In this document: positions 6,366-22,209 of the stretch, piece after piece
How the letters are laid out: each line of letters opens with the position of its first letter
Position numbering within the stretch: position 1 is the first letter of the stretch
DNA from: Planctomycetaceae bacterium
Lineage (GTDB): Bacteria; Planctomycetota; Planctomycetia; Pirellulales; UBA1268
Reading direction: 5' to 3'
Length of the DNA: 31,200 nucleotides
Assembly: GCA_009691925.1 (NCBI GenBank)
Contig: SIAG01000001.1
Coordinates: forward strand, 1 to 31,200
Notes under the pieces: model-generated
Told to the model about the DNA's origin: nothing
The model's database searches: none
The model's input: only the letters and a program-made list of their open reading frames with translations
Program-made: the position numbers and the translations under genes

Positions 6366-8327
6366 GACCGTTGGTCGCCGCCCCGTGTCGGGCACGGCCT
6401 TCTCGACGAGGTCGTAGACAACGTTCGGCACGTCCCCTTGGCCGAAGAGGAGGAACTCGAGCGCGAGCTTGAGGCTGCTTCCCTGGCTCCAGCCGAAGAC
6501 GACGTCGAGCGGCCGGCCCAACTTGCACATCTCGATGGCGATCTGGGCGATCGTGTGCGACACGCTGACGACGTCGCGAGCGACGATCACGAACCGCTCC
6601 CCCTCCTGCTTGGCGGAGAGGATCGGGGCATTGGCGAACTCGCTGGTGTCACCGTAATGGACCTCGAGAAACACGATCGGCACCTCGGCGGGGATCCGGT
6701 GGCGCTGGCGGATCTCCGCCTCCTTCTCGTCGAGTGAGCGGTGACCGGGCCGGTGCGGCACGAGGACACGGAAGGCCCCCTCGGCGCAGATGTCGGTCCA
6801 CAGCATGCGCGCGGAGTCGTCGGCGAAGCGAAACTCCTTGTGACGCAATTCCTGGCTCCGCCACACACGCGACACGATCGAGATCACGAGCACCGACGCG
6901 ATGAACATCGAGGCGATAATGATCCCGTCGGGGCGCTCGGAGATGTTCGTGATCGTCGTGTAGATGAAGACAAGCGTGATCAGGGCGAAGGCGACGCGCT
7001 TGAGGAGGTGGTGATCAGCCCCCGCCGAGGCCTCGTGCTGCATGTGCACCAGCGACGCGATGCAGGCGCTGGTCATGAGCACGAGCACGCCGGTGGCGTA
7101 GGCGCCCCCCTGCGCGGTGACATCGGCCTTGAAGGCCCATGTCACGAGGAGATTGATAACGGTAAAGGCGATCACGAGGGGGCGGTAAGCCGACGCCCAC
7201 TCCGGCGCCATGCCGTAGCGCGGCAGGTAGCGCGGCACCATGTTGAGGAGGCCGGCCATCGCCGAGGCCCCGGCGAACCAGAGGATAAGGATCGTGGAGA
7301 TGTCGTAGACGGTACCGAAGATCGGGCCGAAGAGCGGGCTGATGTTGAGCGGGCTCTCGCCATGGGCGACGTAGGCGAGTGCCCGGTCGAGGGCCTTCCC
7401 TTTGTAGGTGATCTCGCCGGCGTCGTCCTTCTCCATCCGCAGCTCGTCGGCCGGGATGATCGTGTTGGTGCCGGTGACGAGCGAGGAGCCGATGAGGAAA
7501 AACGACATGATCAGGGCGGCGGTGAGCATGAGCCGGCGCGTGTTGAAGATCCGCGCCTGTTCGTCGTCTGGGTTTTCATCACTGCCGCGGACAAGGTGGA
7601 TCAGGAGCACGCCGGTTTCGAAGCCGGAGAGGCCGAGGGCGAGCTTGGGGAAGATCAACAGCGAGATCCCCAGGGCCACCCACAGGCCGTGGCCCTCGAG
7701 CGGCGCCTCGTGGAGGTGGTAGGTGCCCGAGGCGATCTCCGCAAACCACTGTTGGAGGAGGGCCGGGTGGCTGAGGAGGTGCCACAGCCCGCTGGCGATG
7801 ATCAGGAACGACAGCCCGAGGAAGACGATGACGAGGACCGTGGCGATGCCCACGACCTCGGAGTAGCCCTTGAGGAACATCGCCCCGAGGAGCAGGAGGA
7901 GCACCGCCGCTATGACAATCTGATTGTGGGCCCAGGGGGGGGCGCTCCCTGCGAAGATCGAATTGCTGATGAGGTGCGCGGCGGCGTCGGCGGCGGAGAG
8001 CGTCTTGGTGATCACGAAGTCGGTGGCAGCAAAGCCGATCAGAACGAGGACGCCGATCTTCCCCTTCCAGCCGCTCACGAGCCGCTCGATCATCCCGATT
8101 GAGCCGACGCCGTCGGGGGTCTGGCCGGCGACGTAGCTGTAGACGGGGTAGGCCCCAAAAAGGGTCACGAGGACGAGGACCAGCGTCGCGAGGGGGGCAA
8201 GGGTGCCGGCCCCTTCGAAGGCGATCGACGGTTGGTAGCCGAGGGTACTGAAGTAGTCGACGCCGCACAGACACATGATCAGCCACCACGCGTAGTGGTG
8301 ATGCTGACCGTGGGAAGACTCACTCAC
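6354..8327 (-). CDS. APC-superfamily membrane transporter, KimA/KUP-like, 657 aa
   Basis: About 12 hydrophobic segments plus a soluble C-terminal domain of about 150 aa. Motifs GVDYFSTLGY, TDFVIT, LSGFETG and AYATGV. GTG start. Confidence 0.85.
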   Translation of the reverse strand: MSESSHGQHHHYAWWLIMCLCGVDYFSTLGYQPSIAFEGAGTLAPLATLVLVLVTLFGAYPVYSYVAGQTPDGVGSIGMIERLVSGWKGKIGVLVLIGFAATDFVITKTLSAADAAAHLISNSIFAGSAPPWAHNQIVIAAVLLLLLGAMFLKGYSEVVGIATVLVIVFLGLSFLIIASGLWHLLSHPALLQQWFAEIASGTYHLHEAPLEGHGLWVALGISLLIFPKLALGLSGFETGVLLIHLVRGSDENPDDEQARIFNTRRLMLTAALIMSFFLIGSSLVTGTNTIIPADELRMEKDDAGEITYKGKALDRALAYVAHGESPLNISPLFGPIFGTVYDISTILILWFAGASAMAGLLNMVPRYLPRYGMAPEWASAYRPLVIAFTVINLLVTWAFKADVTAQGGAYATGVLVLMTSACIASLVHMQHEASAGADHHLLKRVAFALITLVFIYTTITNISERPDGIIIASMFIASVLVISIVSRVWRSQELRHKEFRFADDSARMLWTDICAEGAFRVLVPHRPGHRSLDEKEAEIRQRHRIPAEVPIVFLEVHYGDTSEFANAPILSAKQEGERFVIVARDVVSVSHTIAQIAIEMCKLGRPLDVVFGWSQGSSLKLALEFLLFGQGDVPNVVYDLVEKAVPDTGRRPTVLVG

Positions 8328-8408
8328 GGGGGCGCATCGCTCCTGCTGGTAGACCGGACGAAGCTCGCAGTTTAACCATCATGCTGGTCGTCGTGGCGGC
8401 CGCCCCGC

Positions 8409-9095
8409 TCACTGCCATTCCGGAAGATCGACGCCGCGCTTCTTCGACTGGGCCTGGAGGGCCGCGGCGTAGCGGTTGAAGAGCTTGCGGCGGTCGGCGT
8501 CCTTTGGCGGCTTCTGGCGGCGGCCTTTCTCTTCGTGCGCCTGCGGCGAGAGGCCGAAGCGGAGTTTCCGGTAGGCGATCGTCCGGTCGATCCCTTCGTC
8601 GGCGAGGCGCGGCCGGTCTGATTCCGGGGCGGCCACGAAGGCGTCGATCGCCTCGTCGCGGCACTGCTTCCATTCCTCGTCGAGGGCCTTGCGGGCGGTC
8701 TCAAGCTCCCCTTTGGTCATCTGATCGGCGTTGCGGATCACCTCGGCGACCGCCTTCTTCCCGACTGCCCCGCGCATCTCGCCACTCAGCAGCCCCTTTT
8801 GGATCGTGGCGGTCGCGCCGACCAGATCAGGCCGCCGGCCGAGGGTCATCCAGGCCCCCCCAGCAATCGTTCCCATTCCGATGACGCCGAGGATGGCGAG
8901 GATCACGATGCCGCTCCCCTTCGATCCGGGCGCGGGGGGCGCCTCCGGAGAGGGCATGGCCCCCGGAGCCGATCCCAGCCGCGGAGCCGCTTGGGCCTTG
9001 GTGCCCGGGGCAGCGGTGGGGAGCGGTTTTCCCTGGGCAACCGCCCGGGCCGCTGCGAGGCGGGCCTGGGCTGCGGGGCTCAACTGACGGGCCAT
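8409..9095 (-). CDS. Hypothetical single-pass membrane protein, about 228 aa
   Basis: AAGGAG RBS before ATG 9095, Ala/Pro-rich N-terminus, one hydrophobic helix (IVILAILGVIGMGTIAGGAWM), then a charged helical C-terminus. Confidence 0.75.
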   Translation of the reverse strand: MARQLSPAAQARLAAARAVAQGKPLPTAAPGTKAQAAPRLGSAPGAMPSPEAPPAPGSKGSGIVILAILGVIGMGTIAGGAWMTLGRRPDLVGATATIQKGLLSGEMRGAVGKKAVAEVIRNADQMTKGELETARKALDEEWKQCRDEAIDAFVAAPESDRPRLADEGIDRTIAYRKLRFGLSPQAHEEKGRRQKPPKDADRRKLFNRYAAALQAQSKKRGVDLPEWQ

Positions 9096-9268
9096 GGTGA
9101 TCTCCTTCAAGGGCTTCAAAGGCAGTGGAAAAAGCCCACCTTGGCATTGTTCCACGGCACGAATCGTGGAACGTCCCGCCCCTCAACGGCTGGCGGGGGC
9201 GTCCACGGTCGGCGCAGACTCGCGTCGGGCGAGGGGCCGGGTTTTCGGGGCTCGAAGCGGTGGCCGCG

Positions 9269-10198
9269 TCAGGTTCCCGTGCCAGCAGCGCCGTCGGTCG
9301 GCTTGGTCGGGTCGTTGCCGTCGCTGATCGTGGAATACCACCGCAGCACATCGAGATCGGTGTCGGGCGTGAGCCCCTCGACATGGCCGTCGAGGAACAC
9401 GAAGTTCACGATTCCGGCGGCATGCTGGCTGCCGAACTTCCGGTTGTTGGTGTCCTTCGGACCGCTGGCGAGCCCCCGGGCCGTGTCGCGGAACAGGCAG
9501 TGGGGGGTGTCGGCGGCGAACATCGAGGTGTCCCCCTGCCAGTACTGGACCATGTTCTGGGGCCAGGCCGGATCGACCGGGATCAGATGCCGCTCGCCGA
9601 GGGCAATCGTCTGGCTCAAGCCGTCGGTCACCCACGCCGCCTTGACCGCCGAGAAGGTGAAGATCGGGCCGGCTTGTCGACCGTCGACACCCGCCCCATT
9701 CTCGGCGCTGTAGTTGAAGTATGTCCCGGCATTGGCGGAATAGTCGCCGCCGGCCGCGGCCGCCACGACGACAGGAACGTCATTGTTGTTGTCGAAGTTG
9801 CGGGTGTTGTTCGGGGCCCGCCGGCTGGGGCAGAAGAACGCGGCGACGGCCGTTCGCATCGACTGCGAATTGAGGGTGTCATCGGCCCGGGCCGTCGGCA
9901 CGTAGGCATTGGCGATCGCCGTCTCCTCCATGTAGGGGAGCATGCGGAAAGCCCAGGAAGTCCCGATCTGCTCGCGGGTATTGCGGCCGGAAGGGAAGGT
10001 TTTCTTGGCGTCGTGGTGGAGTGTGACGGCCAGCCCCTGCTGCTTGAGGTTGTTGTTGCAGGCCATCCGGTTGGCTGCCTCACGGGCCGCCTGGACCGCC
10101 GGGAGGAGGAGCCCGACCAGGGTGCCGATGATGGCGATCACCACGAGCAGCTCAACGAGCGTGAAGCCGCGCCGGACGCCCCTGTCGATCGACCCCAT
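9269..10198 (-). CDS. DUF1559 / prepilin-type N-terminal cleavage-methylation domain protein
   Basis: RRGFTLVELLVVIAIIGTLVGLLLPAVQAAREAANRMACNNNLKQ and C-terminal HAAGIVNFVFLDGHV. An alternative start at ATG 10255 has a GGAG RBS. Confidence 0.93.
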   Translation of the reverse strand: MGSIDRGVRRGFTLVELLVVIAIIGTLVGLLLPAVQAAREAANRMACNNNLKQQGLAVTLHHDAKKTFPSGRNTREQIGTSWAFRMLPYMEETAIANAYVPTARADDTLNSQSMRTAVAAFFCPSRRAPNNTRNFDNNNDVPVVVAAAAGGDYSANAGTYFNYSAENGAGVDGRQAGPIFTFSAVKAAWVTDGLSQTIALGERHLIPVDPAWPQNMVQYWQGDTSMFAADTPHCLFRDTARGLASGPKDTNNRKFGSQHAAGIVNFVFLDGHVEGLTPDTDLDVLRWYSTISDGNDPTKPTDGAAGTGT

Positions 10199-12244: not shown

Positions 12245-12443
12245 GGAAAAAGCTCCTTCCAGAAATGGACGTGGAAAATGGAATCATTCCTGATCGGTTC
12301 AAGAGCCCTTAGCCCCGCCCCGGACCAAAACAAGACAACCGGCGAAGCGCCCCGTTGTGGAGCGCTCCTGCCGGCCGTCGGAGGACAAAAGACAAAGCAG
12401 CCACCATCCCCCGCGCCATGCCGGGCAGTCGGCCCGCGGCCGA

Positions 12444-13244
12444 TCAGGTCTTCGGCGGACGGGGCGCGACCCGCTTGGCAACATTCGACCGAGCCTTCGG
12501 AGACGACTTCCCGTCGACGTCAGCCCCTTCGGCAGCAGCTTGGGCGTCGGACGAGGTGTTGACCTTCCCCTCGAGGATCGCATCGGCGAGCCGGGAGGCG
12601 ACCAGCTCGATTGAGCGGATCGAGTCGTCGTTGCCCGGGATCGGAAGATCGACCAGATCGGGGTCGCAGTCGGTGTCGATCAGGGCGACCGTCGTGATCC
12701 CCATCTTCCGAGCTTCGCTGATAGCGTTCTTTTCCTTCTTCGGATCGAACACCACGAGGCACTCGGGGAGCCGCGACAGGGTGCGGATGCCGCCGAGATT
12801 CCGCTCCATCTTGCGGAACTCCCGCCGCAGCGACGATTGCATCTTCTTGGAATAGGCGCCGAACTCGTCGGAGGGCATCAGCTTCTCGAGCTGCTCCAGC
12901 CGCGCTAGCCGGTTGCGGATCGTGCGGAAATTGGTCAGCGTGCCGCCGAGCCAGCGGTCGGAGACGTAGGGCATGCCGCAGCGCAACGCCTCGCGGGCGA
13001 CCGCCTCGGCCCCCTGCCGCTTCGTCCCGACAAACAGGATCAGGCTGCCGGTCGACGCGACCTGCTTGAGATACTTCCGGGCCCGGAGCAGGCCGCGGAT
13101 CGTCTCGCGGACGTCGATGATGTGGATGAGATTACGGCGCCCATGGATATAGGGCCGCATCTTCGGGTTCCAGCGGCTGGCACGATGGCCAAAGTGCACG
13201 CCGGCTTCGATCAGTTCCTGGGCCAGGACGTTCGACACGCTCAT
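12444..13244 (-). CDS. rpsB: 30S ribosomal protein S2, about 266 aa
   Basis: [45 protein letters not shown] and PGNDDSIRS motifs. Start at ATG 13244. Confidence 0.98.
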
Positions 13245-14377: not shown

Positions 14378-15382
14378 TTGCCCGCCACGATCTATTACGA
14401 CGCTGATGCCGATCTCAAGGCCCTCGATGGGAAGACCATCGCCGTCATCGGCTACGGCAGCCAGGGGCACGCGCAGGCCCAGAATCTCAGGGACAGCGGG
14501 CTGAAGGTCGTCGTCGCCCAGCGGCCGGGTGGTCCGAATTACGATCTCGCCAAGAAGCACGGCTTCGAGCCGATGAGCGTCGAGGATGCCGTCAAGCAGG
14601 CCGACTTGATCAACATCCTCCTCCCCGACGAGGTCGCCGCCGACGTCTACAAGGCGTCGATCCAGCCGCATCTCAAAAAAGGCGCCGTGCTGATGGCCAG
14701 CCACGGCTTCAATTTCCACTTCGGGCAGATCGAGGCCCCCGTCGGTCACGACGTGATGCTCGTCGCCCCGAAGGGCCCGGGGCATCTCGTCCGCAGCGAG
14801 TACGTAAAGGGTGGGGGCGTCCCCTGCCTCATCGCGCTCGGGGCTGGAGCCTCGCCTGAGACCAAGAAGCTCGGGCTGGCTTACGCCAAGGGGATCGGCG
14901 GCACCCGTGGCGGCGTCATCGAGACGACGATCGCGGAGGAGACCGAGACCGACCTGTTCGGTGAGCAGGTCGTTCTCTGTGGCGGTGTCTCGGAGCTCAT
15001 CAAGGCGGGCTTCGACACGCTCGTCGACGCCGGCTACCAGCCGGAGATGGCCTATTTCGAGTGCCTCCACGAGATGAAGCTGATCGTCGACCTCCTCTAC
15101 CAGGGCGGGCTCGAGTACATGCGCTACAGCATCTCGAACACCGCCGAATACGGTGACTACACCCGCGGCAAGCGGATCATCACCGACGAGACCCGTGCGG
15201 AGATGAAGAAGATCCTCGAAGAGATCCGCTCCGGCGAGTTCGCCCGCGACTGGATCCTCGAGAACCGTGGCGGAGCGGCGATGTTCAAGAGCACCCGCCG
15301 CCGCGAGCGCGAGCACAAGCTCACCGAGACCGGCCGCAATCTCCGCAAGATGATGAAGTGGATTGAAGCGAAGGAAGTCTGA
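14378..15382 (+). CDS. ilvC: Ketol-acid reductoisomerase (class I), 334 aa
   Basis: [54 protein letters not shown] and YFECLHE motifs. TTG start with GAGGAG RBS. Confidence 0.98.
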
Positions 15383-15392
15383 GGACTTTCTT

Positions 15393-15445
15393 GTCCGTGG
15401 CCCGAGGGAACGCCGAGGGTTCCCCGGGTCGGCACGGACCGTGCC
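15393..15445. other. Overlapping alternative hairpins downstream of ilvC
   Basis: GTCCGTG(15393-15399) pairs with CACGGAC(15433-15439), with inner GCCCG/CGGGT and GGAAC/GTTCC stems. This competes with the palindrome GGCACGG-A-CCGTGCC (15431-15445). Confidence 0.4.
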
Positions 15446-15506
15446 CTATGAATCGAGTCTCGAGTCGTCGTAGGTGTGTCGCCAGAAGAGAACCGGGAGA
15501 GCCGAT

Positions 15507-15782
15507 ATGACGCCAGAAGAACACCAGTCGCGGACGCTCTACGAGCAACTCACCCCGGGGGACCGGGTCGAGGTGATCCATGGCGTTCAGGTTGGGTCGA
15601 CCGCCACCTGGAGCACGACGACGGTGGGAAAGGTGTTGCGGCGCGAGCGTCGTCGGCACGGCCTCCACTTCCGCCGCAACCCCGACGACAAGGTGTTCAG
15701 CGACGTTCTGATCCTCTCCCGTGACGACGGCGAACTCACCACGGTGACGATCGACGAGTACACGCAGCTTCGCAAGCTGTAG
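15507..15782 (+). CDS. Small hypothetical protein, 91 aa, predicted beta-rich
   Basis: GGGAG RBS, ATG 15507, GC3-rich codons like the neighbours. The GDRVEV...TTTVGKV...ERRRHGLHFRRN...TTVTIDEY pattern suggests short beta strands. Confidence 0.75.
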   Translation: MTPEEHQSRTLYEQLTPGDRVEVIHGVQVGSTATWSTTTVGKVLRRERRRHGLHFRRNPDDKVFSDVLILSRDDGELTTVTIDEYTQLRKL

Positions 15783-15995
15783 GAGCAAAGCTCAGGGCCG
15801 GAAGCCCGGGTGACGTGCCAGCGGGCGGATGCCTGCCAAGCGAACACGAGCCGGACGCTCGTGGTTCGCGTGCAATTCCCGAGTACACGCAGCTTCGCAA
15901 GCTGTAGGAGCAAAGCTCAGGGCCGGAAGCCCGGGTGACGTGCCAGCGGGCGGATGCCTGCCAAGAGAACACGAGCCGGACGCTCGTGGTTCGCG
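15755..15995. repeat. 125-bp tandem unit x about 1.9 (REP/BIME-like, multi-hairpin), starting inside the 3' end of the 91-aa gene
   Basis: 15755-15870 versus 15880-15995: 116 bp with one mismatch (C15841/A15966). The unit contains hairpins CAGCTT-CGC-AAGCTG, GGGC-CGGAA-GCCC, GCGGGC-GGAT-GCCTGC and GCGAAC-ACGAGC-CGGAC-GCTCGT-G-GTTCGC. Confidence 0.95.
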
Positions 15996-16030
15996 GTGTG
16001 TGCCCACCACCGCCATCCCCTTGCTGAGGC

Positions 16031-16059
16031 CAGAAGGGCCTTTTGTGGGAGGCCCTCTG
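16031..16059. other. Hairpin just inside the left end of the insert
   Basis: CAGAAGGGCCT-TTTGTGGG-AGGCCCTCTG: a 10-bp stem with one bulge. Confidence 0.4.
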
Positions 16060-16217
16060 AACTACTTCCGCCCCAGTCAGCGATTGGCTCGCTTGATCGC
16101 CCTCGCCTCGGCACGGTGGCGCCTCGTTTCCTGGCGATCGAGTCTCACCGTGTCGCGGGTTGCGGCTCCTTCCTGGTGTCGGGCCGCAGTGATCCGACTG
16201 CATCTTCAGTGCTGTAC

Positions 16218-16943
16218 TCAAGTCTCATCCAAATCCTCTACTTCGATGACCATAACAATGCCCCATAAGCAATCGGTGAGCCTTTCGAGTGGATCCATGC
16301 GCAGAACAGACGTTGCGTTCGGCAACATTACGTGTTGCCATACCGCATGAGTATTGGAAGGACTTACTGACGTCGACTCTGTCATCCCTCCCGTGCCAGA
16401 TAAACCGCCTCCTCGCGGCACAACGACCACAGTTGGCTCTTGAGTGGCGACTGTGTGGCCATATTGCAGCACCATTTGAACCTCCACTCGCGGGTTCCCG
16501 TCATCGCTTGCGGCCAGGGGCTTGAGTGAAATGGAAGCTTCCCACTTAAAGTTTGGTTCATCACCCTGTCCAGTCCGCGTTCGCTTCATCCCGACTCCAG
16601 GACCTGGAATATCCGCTTTTTTAACACCATTTTCCCATACTTGGCAATTGACTCTGACGAGCAATGGCCGATCGGCGGGTTCGACTTCGACACACCCCGC
16701 GGCGATCCAGCCTAGATGAGGCCAGATCCGAATCAGGTCGCCGCGAAAAAGGTGCGGAGTTGGGGATATGACAATGGTGTCATGCGAATCAGGCAAGGCG
16801 ACTTCTCCCGAGCATAACGTTGCAATCGCCTTCGAAAGCACAATCGCCATGAAAAAGACAATCAATCGCGAACAGAGTAGCCCAGCTTTCGCGGTGGGTT
16901 CTCCAGTAAGCGTAATTGAATAAGGCTTGGGAAAAAAAATCAT
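16218..16943 (-). CDS. Orphan hypothetical protein, up to 241 aa, probably exported or membrane-anchored
   Basis: Long ORF in AT-richer DNA. An N-terminal hydrophobic stretch (LLCSRLIVFFMAIVLSKAIATLC) is followed by alternating beta-strand-like segments. Alternative start at ATG 16850. Confidence 0.55.
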   Translation of the reverse strand: MIFFPKPYSITLTGEPTAKAGLLCSRLIVFFMAIVLSKAIATLCSGEVALPDSHDTIVISPTPHLFRGDLIRIWPHLGWIAAGCVEVEPADRPLLVRVNCQVWENGVKKADIPGPGVGMKRTRTGQGDEPNFKWEASISLKPLAASDDGNPRVEVQMVLQYGHTVATQEPTVVVVPRGGGLSGTGGMTESTSVSPSNTHAVWQHVMLPNATSVLRMDPLERLTDCLWGIVMVIEVEDLDET

Positions 16944-17558
16944 AGCAATTACCTTTTTTCTTCTTACGGCCTACGTCGCCGTAGCGGCCGCTCATGAAAA
17001 CGGAACGAAGAACCTCCATCCGCGAATCACTCAGGGAATCCACTGCCCCTACCGCAGAACCCCGCGTGAGTTCCGCGATCCGCTCGCTATCCCCGCTCTC
17101 TGCCCGAGAAAGACTCGCCTTCCCGAAGTGCCGAAACGTCAGGCAATCCGAAACATAGTCACCAATGCGAGCATGGACCAGCAACGGATCGAGAGCCGAA
17201 GCCGAATACAGCCACGGAAAAAACGATTCGGGAGCCCCGCATGCAACCGCTTGACAGCTCAGTAAAGAGATCCTGCGGACAACCCCCTAGGGCCCCTCAG
17301 TGGATCTGTTCTTCCCCAAAAACCCGCGCCGATCCTATTGATCCCGCAATGGCTGTAAAGTGCGGCCAAAGCGGTGTTTTTGTCGGCCCCTCCGCGGCAC
17401 GGGATCGGTCTAAAAAACCCCGACCCGTACTCGCGGCCATGGGGCGAACGGAACACAAGCGACGCGATCGATCACTCGTTATGGACACGGGCGCCGGGCA
17501 CTGCGGCCTGCGGCTGCTCGCCCGGATAGTCGACAGCCAGCCGGATTGCGCAGGTCAC

Positions 17559-17804
17559 CTATGAGCAGCCGCCGCCGCTCGTGTCATGGGACCTCCGATC
17601 TGTCGAGCCTGGCATTAAGCAACAGCTCAAACGCCTGCTCGCCACCCGAAGCAAGCGAAGGACAAGTCGGCCAATCATTTGGCAGATCAGCAGGTCGCCC
17701 CGTGCGAACGTCGCGAGCACGACGGCGGGCCGACGCTTGCTCGACTGAAGATCGGTGAAAGGAAACGGCACGACGACCACGTCGCCACCTACAAATGCCG
17801 CCAC
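17559..17804 (-). pseudogene. Truncated PemK/MazF-family toxin
   Basis: N-terminus GDVVVVPFPFTDLQSSKRRPAVVLA...LLICQ is PemK/MazF-like, but similarity stops at about codon 43 (near 17676) and the remainder is unrecognisable in any frame. The GTG start overlaps the antitoxin stop by 16 nt. Confidence 0.75.
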
Positions 17805-18001
17805 GCATCATCCTCTTCAGGAGTATCCCAATCCGCCGCCCAGGCTGACTCCGCGAGCGGCAGCAGGGCATGCCCGTCCTCGCTCCCATCACTGCCGGCA
17901 CCGCGTGTCCGTAGGTGCCGCAGAAAAGCGAGCACCTCCCGCTGCACACTCTCCGGTGCGTGCTTGAGTTCCTCGATCAGGGATTTGGTTATGGGTGACA
18001 T
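17789..18001 (-). CDS. DUF2281-like putative antitoxin, 70 aa
   Basis: N-terminal LIEELKHAPESVQREVLAFLRHL and acidic C-terminal LAESAWAADWDTPEEDDAWRHL. This pattern is typical of DUF2281 proteins that precede PemK-type toxins. Confidence 0.75.
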   Translation of the reverse strand: MSPITKSLIEELKHAPESVQREVLAFLRHLRTRGAGSDGSEDGHALLPLAESAWAADWDTPEEDDAWRHL

Positions 18002-18010
18002 GCTGCACAA

Positions 18011-18040
18011 AGGATAGGTCGGCCAATGACACTTCGGCAA
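18011..18040 (-). promoter_or_regulatory. Candidate promoter of the toxin-antitoxin operon (short or leaderless transcript)
   Basis: Minus strand TTGCCG (18040-18035), N18, TATCCT (18016-18011). The ATG lies 9 nt after the -10 box and has no SD. Confidence 0.4.
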
Positions 18041-18150
18041 GCGTCGGCCTGGCGGGGCGGATCATGAGGAGCAACATCCGGGACCGGTCGGCCTGGATGC
18101 GACCCGACCGTGGAGGAGCCGAGGCTCGCGACGAACCCGGTGTTGGCTCG

Positions 18151-18320
18151 CGGACGCCCGCCAAGTGAACACGAGCCGGACGCTCGTGGTTGGCGTGCAG
18201 TTCCCGAGTACACGCAGCTGCGGAAGCTGTAATCGCGGCTTCAGGGCCGGAGGCCCGTGTGTCTTGCCAGCGGGCGGATGCCCGCCAAGCGAACACGAGC
18301 CGGACGCTCGTGGTTCGCGT
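18151..18320. repeat. Diverged 124-bp-period copy of the same multi-hairpin unit (about 1.4 units)
   Basis: GAACACGAGCCGGACGCTCGTGGTT at 18167-18191 and 18291-18315. 18205-18319 aligns to 15755-15870 with 8 substitutions plus a replaced 8/9-nt block after the stop codon. Confidence 0.93.
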
Positions 18321-18332
18321 GAAGCCTCAGCC

Positions 18333-19694
18333 TCAGGCCACGCGGGCGATGACGCACTTGAGGTATTCCCCCTCGAGGCAGCTGGCGCTGACGGGGTGAT
18401 CGGGGGCGGCGCCGCGGCATTCGAGCATGGCGATCTGGCGGCCGCTCCGCTGGGCCACCGCGGAGAGCATCTCGAGGAAGTCGTCGCGCGAGACGCTCCC
18501 CGAGCAGGAACAGCTGACGAGGATCCCCCCCGGCTCGAGGAGATCGACCGCGACGCGGTTGATGCGGTGGTAGGCCCGCAGGGCCTCTTCGATGGCGCCG
18601 CGGCTGCGGGCGAACTTCGGCGGATCGAGGATCACCATCCCGAACTTTTCACCGGTGGCGGCCAGGCTGTCGATCCGCGCAAAAGCGTCGGCTGTCTCCA
18701 CCGCGACGTTCGCCGCGCCGTTGAAGTCGGCGTTGGCCCGGGCCAGCGCCGTCGCCTTAGCGCTGCCGTCGACGGCGAGCACGCTCCTGGCCGAGCCGGT
18801 GATGGCGCAGGTGACGGCGAAGCCGCCGGAGTAGCAAAAGAGATCGAGGACGCGGCGGTCGCGGGCGAGGAGCGCGGCGGCACGCCGATTCTCACGCTGG
18901 TCGAGGTAGAAGCCTGTCTTCTGCCCTTCGGTGAGATCGACGCCCCAGGAGAGGCTCCCCTCGCGGATGAAGACCGGCCCTTCCGGAGCGGTGCCGCGGA
19001 TGACCCGGTCGGGGAGATGGAGCCCCTCGAGCTTCGAAAGGCCCCGGTCGGCGCCCCGCAGAAGGATCCCGGCCGGTTTCACCGCCGCTTCGAGAGCGTC
19101 GCAGATCGCGTCGAGGCGACCGGCCATGGCCAGGCCCGTCACCTGAATGGCGAGATGGTCGCCGTAGCGATCGACGACAAGCCCGGAGAGATCATCTCCT
19201 TCGCTGTTGATCAGCCGCGCGGCGCCGGAGCGGTCGTCGAGCCCCAGCGTCCGGCGAAGGGCGATGGCAGCATCGATCCGCGATCGCCAGAAGGGGGCGT
19301 CGAGCGGCACGTCGGATTCAAAGGCGTAGAGCCTGACGCGGAGCCGGCTCGAGGCATTCCAAATCCCGCGGGCGATAAACCGCCCCTCGTGCGTGGCCAG
19401 ATCGACGACATCGCCGTCGGCGGGGGTCCCTTCAACGCGGTCGATGGCGGTGTCGAGGACCCAGGGATGGCGCCCGAAGAACGGTCGCGCCCGCTTCGCC
19501 TTCACCAGCACCGTCGCCGTGGGAAGGCCGGGCTCGTCGGTGGCGCGGGCCGCCGGCGGTGGGGGCGGCGCGGGGGGCCGTTCATCGCGACGCCGCCCCT
19601 CGGGGGCGGAGTCACTCCGATGGCGCTGGTCTTTGGCATCGTGCCGTGGGCCCGATCCCGGCTTCCTGCCGAGGCGGCGCCTGCCTTCAGGCAT
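18333..19694 (-). CDS. rlmI: Class I SAM-dependent rRNA methyltransferase, RlmI (m5C1962) family, about 453 aa
   Basis: PUA-like RHPWV...GDVV, NSEGDDLSGLVVDRY, GQKTGFYLDQRENR, VLDLFCYSGGF, ILDPPKF and EGEYLK motifs. ATG 19694 overlaps the MMPL stop (ATGCCTGA). Confidence 0.85.
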   Translation of the reverse strand: MPEGRRRLGRKPGSGPRHDAKDQRHRSDSAPEGRRRDERPPAPPPPPAARATDEPGLPTATVLVKAKRARPFFGRHPWVLDTAIDRVEGTPADGDVVDLATHEGRFIARGIWNASSRLRVRLYAFESDVPLDAPFWRSRIDAAIALRRTLGLDDRSGAARLINSEGDDLSGLVVDRYGDHLAIQVTGLAMAGRLDAICDALEAAVKPAGILLRGADRGLSKLEGLHLPDRVIRGTAPEGPVFIREGSLSWGVDLTEGQKTGFYLDQRENRRAAALLARDRRVLDLFCYSGGFAVTCAITGSARSVLAVDGSAKATALARANADFNGAANVAVETADAFARIDSLAATGEKFGMVILDPPKFARSRGAIEEALRAYHRINRVAVDLLEPGGILVSCSCSGSVSRDDFLEMLSAVAQRSGRQIAMLECRGAAPDHPVSASCLEGEYLKCVIARVA

Positions 19695-22209
19695 GCACGA
19701 CCTGCTTAGCCTGACCGGGGAGGACATGGGGGGGAGAAAGTTCGTCGCTCCCCGCATCCTCCTTCACGGTCGTCCGGCCGTTGCGGAGCGCCTTGTTGCG
19801 TTCGATCCGCAGCACGCTCCAACTGAAGACGGCTCCGAGGGGGCCGGAGAGGAGCGCGGGCATGAAGACGAGGTTGCCGACCAGGGCGATGGTCAGCATC
19901 GCGAGCATCATGTAGCCGAAACGCTGCGTCGGGCCGAACGGCGAGAGTGAGAACACCGACAGACCGATGCCGATCACACCCCAGCTTTGGTACATCGCGC
20001 GGGCACAGCCCTTGTAGGCGAGCATCGTCGCCTGTTTGCGGTCGAGCCCGTCGGCGATCCCGCGGCGGAACCAGAGCATGAAGTGGACGACGTCGTCGAC
20101 GGTCACGCCCAGCGCCACGCTCGGCGCCATCACCGTGCCGATATCAATGAGGAGATGGCCGTCGGCATAGGCCTTGAGGAGGTGGTTGCCCCAGCCCATC
20201 GCCCCGAACACCATGACTGCCGGGAAGGCGGCGGGGAGGAGAAGAACGAGCCCCGCCGACGTTGCCCGGCAGAGGAGGATCATGACCGCGACGATGATCG
20301 CGAAATCCCAGATGAAGCCAATTTTGAGACCGTCGAGGAGCGAGTGCTGGGCCTTATAGACCAGCGGCACCAGCCCCGTGTAATCGACCGAAACGCCATC
20401 GATCCCCTTCTCGGTCATCCTGGCGAGGATCGGGTCGATCTTCGTCTGGAGATCGGCCTTGAAATCGGCGTAGTCGACCTCCTTGACGGCGCTGACGCGG
20501 GCGCTGATCCGCCACAGTTCCTGCTCGCGGCCGTCGTCGAGGACGGCGTCGCGGAGGTAGTCGCCGGCGAGGAAGTCCTCACGGTGGGCCAAGAGCCGCC
20601 GATTGAGAACGTTGCGCTTCGTCCGGGCGCCGAGGCCAAAGGCCCGGGCAGCCGCCCCGCCGATCCCCTCGCCGCCGTCGCCGGTCTCGAGGCTGCGGCC
20701 GAACGTGACGGTGGAAAGCGAGCTTCCGACTTCGGCGAGCGCGCCGATCTCCGACTGGATCTCGCCGACGAGCTCCATTCGCTCGAGGAAATTGAGCGGG
20801 CAGGTCTTTTGGTCGATGCGGACGAGGATCTCCATCGGCACCAGCGGTCCGAGATGGGTCTCGAGCCAGCGGTAGTCTTCGCGGATCCGCGCCTTGGGGG
20901 AGAACAACCGCATCAGCTGGACGCTGCTCTCCACCTTCGTCATCCCATAGCCGACGCCGGCCATCACGAGCAGGCAGGCGACGGTAACGAGGCCGTTGTT
21001 TCGCGTCACCCACTCGCCGGCACGCCACCAGCGGCTGTTCTCCATCGAGCCGAGATCGACCCCCTCGCCTTCGTCGGTCGAATGGCCAGCGAGGTTCGGG
21101 GGAAAGAGCTCGAGAGCGGCGGGCATGAAGAAGACGAGGATCAGGAAGCTCACCACCACGCCGACGGCCGAGAAGATGCCGAACATCCGGATCGGCACCA
21201 GCTCGCTGACGGCCAGTGTGGCCAGGCCGATGGCCGTCGTGCCGGTGGCCAGCGACAGCGGCAGGAGAGCGTGATGGACCGAGCGTCCGGCCGCCCCCTC
21301 CTGAATGCCGGTCTCGGCGATCTGGTCGCGATAGTAGTTGGCCAGATGGATCGCTCCGCTCGTGGTGGCGACATACACCAGCGACGGCATCGTGAGGAGG
21401 ATCGCATCGACGGGGTAGCCCGAGTACCAGACCACCGCGAGGCTCGCGAACATGCTGTACACGCCGGAGGCGAGCACCAAACCGACCAGCAGTTTGCTCT
21501 TCAGGCTCCACCAGCTGACGAAAAACCCGACCACGAGTGAGAGGCCGAAGAGGATCGTGACGCTCGTCTGGCCGGCCTTGTCGATCGAGACGTTGTCGAC
21601 CGGCGGGCCACCCATGTGGAGGGTAGCGGCCGGGATGCCGCATTCCTTCGTCGCCACTTCCTGGATCGTGTCGATGGCGCCATGGAGATTGGCACGGGCG
21701 GTGTCGGAGAGCGTCAGGACGAGGCACGTCTGGCGCAGCTCGGGATCGTCGGGGAGCGGTTCGCCCGTGGCCGACTTCGGCGGCGCACCGATGATCGCCC
21801 CGGTAAGACGCTCGATCGCCTCTTCGCGGTCGAGGTTGAGTGGTTCGGCCATCATCAAGTCGACGGCCCGCGGACCGGTCTGGGCCGATTTGTAATAGAG
21901 CGGCCGATCGATACGCGAGGCTTCCTCCGGCGGGGGGAGGAGTTTCTTCGCCAGCAACTCGAGCCTGGGATCGGCCATCGTGCAGCCGTCCCACGACACG
22001 AGGATGAACTCCTCGCCGGCAAAATTGCGGCGGAAGAACCGGTAGACCTGCGTCTCCGGGTATTCCAGCGGCAGCCAACCCTTGACGTCGTTGCGGTTGT
22101 TCCCTTTTGCCTTCACCGCCCCCACCAACACCAGTGGCAGCAGGAACAGCAGGACCGCCATGATTGCGACGCTGTACCGCTGATAGAAGTTGTTGCGGGA
22201 GTGCGTCAT
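19687..22209 (-). CDS. MMPL/RND-family transporter, about 840 aa
   Basis: Two repeats of (TM, periplasmic loop, 5 TM). GGPPVD and TGLVPLVY loop-end motifs, GVTVDDVVHF motif, GPTQRFG. Start at ATG 22209 or GTG 22212. Confidence 0.88.
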   Translation of the reverse strand: MTHSRNNFYQRYSVAIMAVLLFLLPLVLVGAVKAKGNNRNDVKGWLPLEYPETQVYRFFRRNFAGEEFILVSWDGCTMADPRLELLAKKLLPPPEEASRIDRPLYYKSAQTGPRAVDLMMAEPLNLDREEAIERLTGAIIGAPPKSATGEPLPDDPELRQTCLVLTLSDTARANLHGAIDTIQEVATKECGIPAATLHMGGPPVDNVSIDKAGQTSVTILFGLSLVVGFFVSWWSLKSKLLVGLVLASGVYSMFASLAVVWYSGYPVDAILLTMPSLVYVATTSGAIHLANYYRDQIAETGIQEGAAGRSVHHALLPLSLATGTTAIGLATLAVSELVPIRMFGIFSAVGVVVSFLILVFFMPAALELFPPNLAGHSTDEGEGVDLGSMENSRWWRAGEWVTRNNGLVTVACLLVMAGVGYGMTKVESSVQLMRLFSPKARIREDYRWLETHLGPLVPMEILVRIDQKTCPLNFLERMELVGEIQSEIGALAEVGSSLSTVTFGRSLETGDGGEGIGGAAARAFGLGARTKRNVLNRRLLAHREDFLAGDYLRDAVLDDGREQELWRISARVSAVKEVDYADFKADLQTKIDPILARMTEKGIDGVSVDYTGLVPLVYKAQHSLLDGLKIGFIWDFAIIVAVMILLCRATSAGLVLLLPAAFPAVMVFGAMGWGNHLLKAYADGHLLIDIGTVMAPSVALGVTVDDVVHFMLWFRRGIADGLDRKQATMLAYKGCARAMYQSWGVIGIGLSVFSLSPFGPTQRFGYMMLAMLTIALVGNLVFMPALLSGPLGAVFSWSVLRIERNKALRNGRTTVKEDAGSDELSPPHVLPGQAKQVVHA

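Follow-up and report, generated by a model that had tools for sequence, protein, structure and literature searches.

A homogenised tandem array of three-hairpin elements that includes a gene end, and the heterogeneous insertions at its locus, in a Pirellulales genome

The stretch of DNA analysed here, referred to as the window, comprises the first 31,200 nucleotides of contig SIAG01000001.1 of Planctomycetaceae bacterium GCA_009691925.1, a metagenome-assembled genome (MAG, G000) belonging to lineage UBA1268 of the order Pirellulales. The MAG has a size of 3.26 Mb, is 63% complete and consists of 318 contigs. In the window, a conserved gene encoding a 102-aa protein and a convergent gene for an RlmI-like methyltransferase (rlmI) enclose an array of tandem repeat units, each built around an 85-nt element with three hairpins (Table 1). 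The array is interrupted by a 2.1-kb insert. The G + C content is 67.4% for the window, 58.7% for the insert overall and 53% for positions 16193-17100. The locus and its repeat were compared with related genomes of the order, including members of the same genus, genomes of sister genera and representatives of other families.

An earlier annotation of this stretch, made from the letters alone and here called the sequence-only reading, had described the layout of the array. The unit coordinates, the match between the two copies of hairpin Y beside the insert, the four copies of a 30-nt hairpin and the AT-richer nature of the insert were all reproduced. The two 45-nt Y copies (15951-15995 and 18151-18195), between which the insert lies, are identical at 41 of 45 positions. 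The 30-nt hairpin starts at positions 15840, 15965, 18165 and 18289 with 0, 1, 2 and 0 mismatches, respectively. A pattern search over the whole MAG yielded these four copies, all at this locus, and the reversed pattern used as control gave zero. Unit 3 (18204-18320) shares 102-103 of 117 positions with units 1 and 2, and unit 1 has a predicted fold of -55.4 kcal/mol (z = -2.0).

The same annotation had placed a lone Y before the last unit. A Y hairpin is indeed present there, but it is part of a full-length degenerate element (E3), so that the array has four elements. With our covariance model (CM) of the element, model R1, E3 scores 39 bits versus 72-90 bits for the other three elements of the window. 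Its left part matches the sequence that follows a miniature inverted-repeat transposable element (MITE) in the related genome G009. Every clustered copy is a direct repeat, arranged head-to-tail on one strand. Inverted pairs of the kind known from REPINs, which are doublets of repetitive extragenic palindromic (REP) sequences and had been named as a parallel, were not seen among the clustered copies.

Two strains that were collapsed or misjoined at the repeat could in principle produce such an arrangement in a fragmented MAG, and related alleles do share one metagenome: in run X2, an allele with an intact toxin gene is visible as a loose end at position 17677. The check was made on contigs, not reads, from four independent freshwater studies. 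Contigs from these studies, many with zero mismatches, span positions 15995/15996, 17676/17677 and 17747-18313, the last reaching from a toxin-antitoxin (TA) module into unit 3. Other metagenome contigs carry the same join of Y, the end of an insertion sequence (IS) of the IS66 family and a gene for a 241-aa protein. The arrangement is genuine because contigs from independent studies span the checked junctions, which contradicts a two-strain misjoin and leaves an assembly artefact with a practically negligible probability.

Table 1 Features of the locus in the window, MITE copies in related loci and left junctions of the inserts
Feature	Position	Strand	Details
Conserved 102-aa gene	15474-15782	+	open reading frame and translation; downstream of ilvH and ilvC; no named family
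Repeat unit 1	15755-15879	+	gene tail (itself a small palindrome), GAGC-AAA-GCTC hairpin, element E1 (15791-15876), 10-nt linker; CM 88.5 bits
Repeat unit 2	15880-15995	+	115/116 identical to unit 1; element E2 (15916-16002 by CM), 72.2 bits
IS66-family end remnant	15996-16192	-	terminal repeat and decayed 3' end of transposase gene; 197 nt; directly adjoins Y hairpin
241-aa conserved hypothetical gene	16218-16943	-	low-GC module, about 16191-16951
DNA without match in relatives	16952-17676		ends in 18-nt copy (17658-17675) of the start of the 116-nt repeat
Truncated PemK/MazF-type toxin gene	17559-17804	-	homology to intact gene ends at 17677, after about 42 codons
Intact 70-aa antitoxin-like gene	17789-18001	-	weak DUF2281 resemblance (E = 0.031, below cut-off)
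116-nt dispersed repeat	18008-18124	+	upstream of TA operon
Degenerate element E3	18123-18201	+	full-length three-hairpin copy, model positions 1-85, 39.4 bits; no gene tail
Repeat unit 3	18204-18325	+	tail' (18206-18232), element E4 (18240-18325), CM 89.8 bits; adjoins stop codon of convergent gene
RlmI-like S-adenosylmethionine-dependent methyltransferase gene	18333-19757	-	PUA domain; Pfam PF10672, PF17785; convergent; right border of hotspot
MITE copies	L012 1945-2140; L018 1838-2015; L029 about 12310-12470; L182		two copies in L182
Left junction, window, L179, L180, L182			after complete Y
Left junction, G008			within inner right arm of Y
Left junction, G006 and G009			within outer right arm of Y
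Left junction, G016			within X
Left junction, MITE-bearing alleles			after X

Model R1 was built from an alignment (A1) of 20 element copies from six genomes, folded with RNAalifold. The element is 85 nt long and forms three hairpins (X, Y0 and Y) with 22 predicted pairs; at 14 of these, both partners have changed with pairing preserved. The earlier statement that differences between units mostly preserve the stems is confirmed. The inner stem of Y is hypervariable across copies, and its pairing is always kept. An Rfam scan of positions 15000-19000 at E-values up to 1 matched no family. With model R1, 87, 44, 21 and 13 copies of the element were found in genomes of four sister genera that belong to the same taxonomic family. 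Genomes of the window's own genus contain 0-5 copies (8 in one), most of the checked ones at this locus. In 16 other families of the order, the model gave zero matches in 15 and one marginal match (E = 0.007) in the sixteenth. The structured repeat family is thus real and lineage-specific, which bears out the REP-like character that the sequence-only reading had assigned to it. Its expectation of many dispersed copies holds for the sister genera but not for the own MAG, in which (at 63% completeness) the four copies at the single locus are the only ones.

Dispersed copies are located at the 3' ends of genes. According to a rough test based on the GC content of third codon positions (GC3), 13 of 16 adjoin the end of a gene on the opposite strand. 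At many other loci of G023, a genome rich in copies, elements are often arranged in tandem with a period of 122-125 nt. The spacer of about 40 nt between these elements repeats the sequence just 5' of the first element, like the gene tail in the window, and the arrays consist of a head of about 130 nt followed by n modules. Many of the loci with such flank-copying arrays are not gene ends. For REP clusters, it has been described that they can be reiterated in tandem together with flanking DNA (PMC3733652).

The tail of unit 1 (15756-15782) is the final 27 nt of the 102-aa gene, corresponding to nine codons (EYTQLRKL-stop). Orthologues of this gene were found at 80 loci of Pirellulales/Planctomycetota MAGs, and the protein has no match in Pfam or NCBIfam. 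In distant genera without the repeats, the same two convergent genes are 27-200 nt apart and the C-terminal codons of the 102-aa gene are unchanged, indicating that the tail is native to the gene. The tail of unit 3 reads CTG CGG ... TAA versus CTT CGC ... TAG in units 1 and 2; these three substitutions are all synonymous or lead from one stop codon to another. The tetranucleotide GTAG, which had been taken for the foot of a REP sequence, turned out to be formed by the Leu and stop codons of the gene. It is replaced by GTAA or GTGA in other copies, and the dispersed copies are free of such a tag. The element terminates in CGTG, with no conserved unpaired GTAG/CGTC tag beside the stem.

Across the genus, the locus features 1-4 units between the same flanking genes. 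Four near-identical tail-bearing units without an insert are present in L106, and the last unit is missing from a closely related strain in run X7, an independent metagenome, where position 18200 is joined to 18328 with two letters in between. Since the copy number differs among close relatives and the flanks are constant, the array qualifies as a locus with a variable number of tandem repeats (VNTR). Adjacent units in one genome are 91-100% identical, and the mean identity between genomes is 84%. The tails follow the same pattern, being identical within a genome and different between genomes (EYTQ, EYTK, EFTK or EFTR at their start, ...KL or ...KV at their end). Compared with the gene's own tail, the distal tails have 11 synonymous changes and 4 nonsynonymous ones; of the latter, two destroy the stop codon and one is an allele that forms the real gene end in other species. 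The array of the locus is variable in copy number and homogenised, and the gene end is part of it. Unit 3 of the window shares 95% identity with the gene-proximal unit of G012 and G016, versus 86-87% with units 1 and 2 of its own genome. Either the insert isolated this unit from homogenisation, or the flank came by recombination.

Runs of about 100 N are located inside the array of L015 (G007) and L021 (G011), which may be scaffold gaps at tandem repeats or masked stretches.

The insert of the window is a composite, decayed patchwork of mobile DNA and most probably not a cassette moved by the hairpins. At its left edge, five copies of the IS66-family end with unrelated outer flanks all begin their homology at base 15996. 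A full copy of this element is present on contig C121 of the same MAG (7651-9941, L081) and encodes a 600-aa DDE_Tnp_IS66 protein (213.6 bits) together with TnpB_IS66. The 241-aa protein next to the remnant has 14 homologues (58-99% identity, 201-242 aa), all of which are hypothetical proteins, and no match in Pfam or NCBIfam. Further metagenome contigs have its gene at the locus studied here. In L175-L177, which are other MAGs and metagenome contigs, the gene lies at an unrelated locus, accompanied by genes for a 610-aa AAA_15/AAA_21 ATPase and a photolyase, with a DDE_Tnp_1_4 fragment nearby in one contig. This distribution suggests a small mobile module.

The TA pair in the right part of the insert is not intact: the toxin gene is cut in the middle, and the antitoxin gene is whole. 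The intact toxin orthologue in G008 has 114 aa (PF02452, 44.5 bits). In G008 and G012, the corresponding locus has DNA that is 94-98% identical to the antitoxin region. The 116-nt repeat upstream of the operon has a second copy in the own genome (C192:6480-6596, 89% identity), and copies were found in at least ten relatives. In G012, the TA module is fused at its right end to the final 7 nt of the terminal repeat of the MITE, and in G009 the MITE is followed by this same flank. This sharing of the flank with MITE ends indicates that recombination with an insertion already present brought in the TA module. The insert as a whole would be the sum of at least three insertion events, followed by decay, rather than a unit taken up from Y to Y.

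Two minor observations concern these parts. In related MAGs, contigs often end at the ends of the IS66-family element, and the first 18 nt of the 116-nt repeat recur at 17658-17675, exactly at the breakpoint of the toxin gene.

Relatives carry different contents at the same position. The arrays of G004 and G013 are empty, consisting of the gene, two units and rlmI. G008 and G012 contain only a TA module of 0.7 kb, the shared part of which (17677-18149) is 94-98% identical to the window. The insert of G016 is 4.1 kb in length and codes for a Ser/Thr kinase, an extracytoplasmic function (ECF) sigma factor and a protein resembling FGE-sulfatase. In G006 and G009, a common insert of 5.1 kb codes for a GT8 glycosyltransferase and a sulfotransferase. 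The TA module is missing from metagenome contigs L178-L182, which do feature the IS66 remnant and the 241-aa gene. In addition, G001, G002 and G009 have a MITE of about 190 bp, with terminal inverted repeats and the core GGGGTCGCCCGTGCCCCG, directly behind hairpin X, and L182 has two copies in this position. The element appears to be the target of the MITE. Both the empty alleles and the alternative cargo (at least four other inserts) that the sequence-only reading had called for were thus found.

The left junctions of these inserts lie at five or more distinct positions of the element (Table 1), with no constant crossover point, and the inserts of G016, G006 and G009 lack an element on their far side. 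The locus is an insertion hotspot with heterogeneous junctions. No recombinase or integrase domain was found in the inserts of the window, G016, G006, G009, G008 and G012, which for the window agrees with the earlier statement that no recombinase is on board. Likewise, no transposase or integrase was found inside the alternative inserts, and no tRNA gene is present near the locus as an integration target.

These alleles bear directly on the mechanism that had been proposed for the locus, namely repeat-mediated gene capture, in which circles with one Y copy integrate and excise by means of a REP-associated tyrosine transposase (RAYT) of the HUH type or a tyrosine recombinase such as IntI. The position of the insert between two closely matching Y copies and the variable and empty alleles are what such a mechanism would leave behind. 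Candidate enzymes also exist, as the genome has a RAYT-like gene and attC sites and seven members of the genus have IntI. The junctions, which lie at several element positions, argue against it, as does the mosaic cargo with a toxin gene cut inside and an IS66 end at the left edge. Close element pairs elsewhere enclose housekeeping genes (for a PfkB kinase, a ComM-like ATPase and ClpX). No joint that skips the cargo and no circle junction was found in the contigs of the four metagenomes, which is weak evidence since contigs drop rare variants.

The candidate enzymes do not lead to the element either. The RAYT-like gene of the own MAG (contig C6, 2342-3040) encodes 232 aa and reaches 44 bits with Y1_Tnp and 75.5 bits with NF047646 (cut-off 80). 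RAYT-like genes are single-copy across the genus. Model R1 found no element around the RAYT-like genes of G000, G021, G023 and G024, and the own gene is flanked by other repeats. G019 has 44 elements, yet no match to Y1_Tnp. A link between the element and a REPIN/RAYT system was therefore rejected, and the suggested mobilisation in trans by RAYT was not borne out.

For the integron, IntI (TIGR02249) scores above 440 bits in seven genus members, on contigs other than this locus, and the own MAG has no match above the cut-off. A classical array of about 90-nt attC sites follows IntI in G002 (L171, G002:C9 9197-19290). An attC covariance model (R2) recovers the arrays of G002 and G013 and, in addition, seven sites in the own genome, but is blank in the window and in the insert loci L027-L031; R1 in turn finds nothing in the integron loci. 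An integron link was rejected as well, because attC and IntI are present in the genus and genome, but are absent here and unrelated. With its heterogeneous junctions, mosaic cargo and three large inserts that lack a far-side element, the locus does not behave like the REP-based cassette system that had been envisaged, and gene capture through Y is very unlikely. A similarly slight chance is given to the related possibility that the array is a true recombination site at which a trans-acting enzyme recognises Y and captures and releases DNA, the heterogeneity of the junctions being later decay.

The gene end within the unit raises a further possibility. The locus could be the remnant of an integrative element that targeted the 3' end of the 102-aa gene, with the units as attachment (att) sites that carry surrogate gene ends and with the integrase lost, comparable to the accretion of cis-mobilisable elements (CIMEs). 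Units 2 and 3 lie on either side of the insert, forming direct repeats of about 116 nt with the gene end included, the tail of unit 3 has only synonymous changes, and inserts differ among species, all as expected for att sites. This interpretation has to contend with the tandem tail-bearing units without an insert in G004, G013 and L106, with the homogenisation of adjacent units within genomes and with five types of insert of which none encodes an integrase. G016, G006 and G009 again lack a far-side unit and have differing junctions, and flank-copying arrays exist at many loci other than gene ends. Concerted evolution, in which any unit is able to become the gene end, explains the synonymous pattern of the tails without an att site. 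We consider the integrative remnant unlikely.

Taken together, we regard it as likely that the locus is a REP/BIME-like VNTR (BIME, bacterial interspersed mosaic element), probably bearing terminators, in an insertion hotspot between the 102-aa gene and rlmI. An old tandem duplication, evident from the units, took the last 27 nt of the gene and the element as one unit. Unequal crossing-over or replication slippage between units could then expand, contract and homogenise the array, as the pattern of identities suggests. A crossover between two tails would keep the gene intact, so that changes in the array would cost the gene nothing and the distal tails would show mostly synonymous differences. 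The gap would tolerate insertions, with hairpins that attract an IS and a MITE, and foreign DNA may accumulate in it by transposition and illegitimate recombination.

Several points weigh against this interpretation. The role as terminator is deduced from form only, and the orientation test is crude. The Y copies of the window are followed by only two T after the stem, and a consensus scan gave only weak matches. Two genera have one and the same duplication junction, for which a directed mechanism instead of shared ancestry could be responsible. Several different inserts in one gap of 0.3 kb, within a single genus, are much for a site that is merely permissive. Finally, the insert of the window does lie between two copies of the element.

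As to the function of the element, Y of the family consensus consists of an A-run, a GC-rich stem and a T-run. Such an arrangement has the form of a bidirectional intrinsic terminator, and judged by this form the element would most likely end or stabilise the transcripts of the flanking genes. In the first two hairpins the loop almost always reads GGA, in the third it does so in about 60% of the copies, and loops in sister genera (G023) often read CAGGATG (alignment A1; L067-L076). Binding of CsrA to GGA in hairpin loops has been described (PMC13443453, PMC6546359). Each of the 41 sampled genomes of the order encodes 3-13 CsrA paralogues. It is conceivable, as a speculation, that the tandem arrays act as binding platforms for these paralogues. 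In a rough determination of the orientation of dispersed copies, GGA was not consistently located on the transcribed strand.

Compared to known systems, the family resembles the REP/BIME clusters of proteobacteria in its short GC-rich hairpins at gene 3' ends, the compensatory changes in the stems and the family-specific copy number. REP sequences are also insertion targets of IS elements such as IS1397 and ISPpu9/10. The family differs from REP/BIME clusters in having three different hairpins per 85-nt module, direct repeats only, no GTAG/CGTC tag and no link to RAYT, and in the handful of copies in the window's genus. The VNTR loci formed by mycobacterial interspersed repetitive units (MIRUs), reportedly described by Supply and colleagues in 1997, share the intergenic tandem repeats of tens to about 100 nt, the strain-variable number and a unit that overlaps the upstream stop codon. 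However, MIRUs are located inside operons and represent small coupled open reading frames, whereas the array studied here occupies the gap between convergent genes and its unit consists mostly of hairpins. BOX elements of Streptococcus pneumoniae are dispersed and modular, with internal modules in tandem and in variable number. The arrays of G023 with a head and n modules are similarly built, although the sequences are unrelated and the module here is terminator-like.

Integron arrays and clusters of attC sites lacking integron integrases (CALINs) are similar in their structured repeats of about 90-125 nt between promoterless genes; TA cargo is typical for them, and the genus owns an integron. 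Nevertheless, attC of the genus belongs to another sequence and structure family, is located elsewhere (C79), and no IntI is found near the locus. CIMEs and accreted integrative elements occur at gene 3' ends, e.g. ICESt1 at fda. As in these elements, direct repeats of a gene 3' end flank DNA free of recombinases, but the locus differs from them in having no integrase-bearing partner allele, in its cargo-free homogenised tandems and in its variable junctions.

The element defines a structured repeat family of freshwater Pirellulales that had not been catalogued before, and a working covariance model of it is now available. The array represents a clean natural case of a repeat unit that contains the last codons of a gene and evolves in concert with it. 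It also calls for caution, as cargo between hairpin repeats can arise without cassette machinery: an IS66 end, a MITE, a TA module and other genes are piled up in one gap. For annotation, the array is useful as a VNTR in strain typing, and contig breaks and scaffold gaps of these MAGs probably stem from it.

Two other systems were encountered in the same MAG. The RAYT-like gene on C6 (C6:2295-3161, L080) is flanked by 37-nt inverted repeats beginning AAAAGGTGCCAGCCACCAAA, which are present in 19 copies in the MAG, many of them as inverted pairs about 60 nt apart (control 0). Gene and repeats together look like a genuine REPIN-RAYT system of Pirellulales. Five of the seven attC sites recovered by R2 in the own genome are located on C79 (C79:9128-11678), and these represent a chromosomal integron or CALIN in freshwater Pirellulales.

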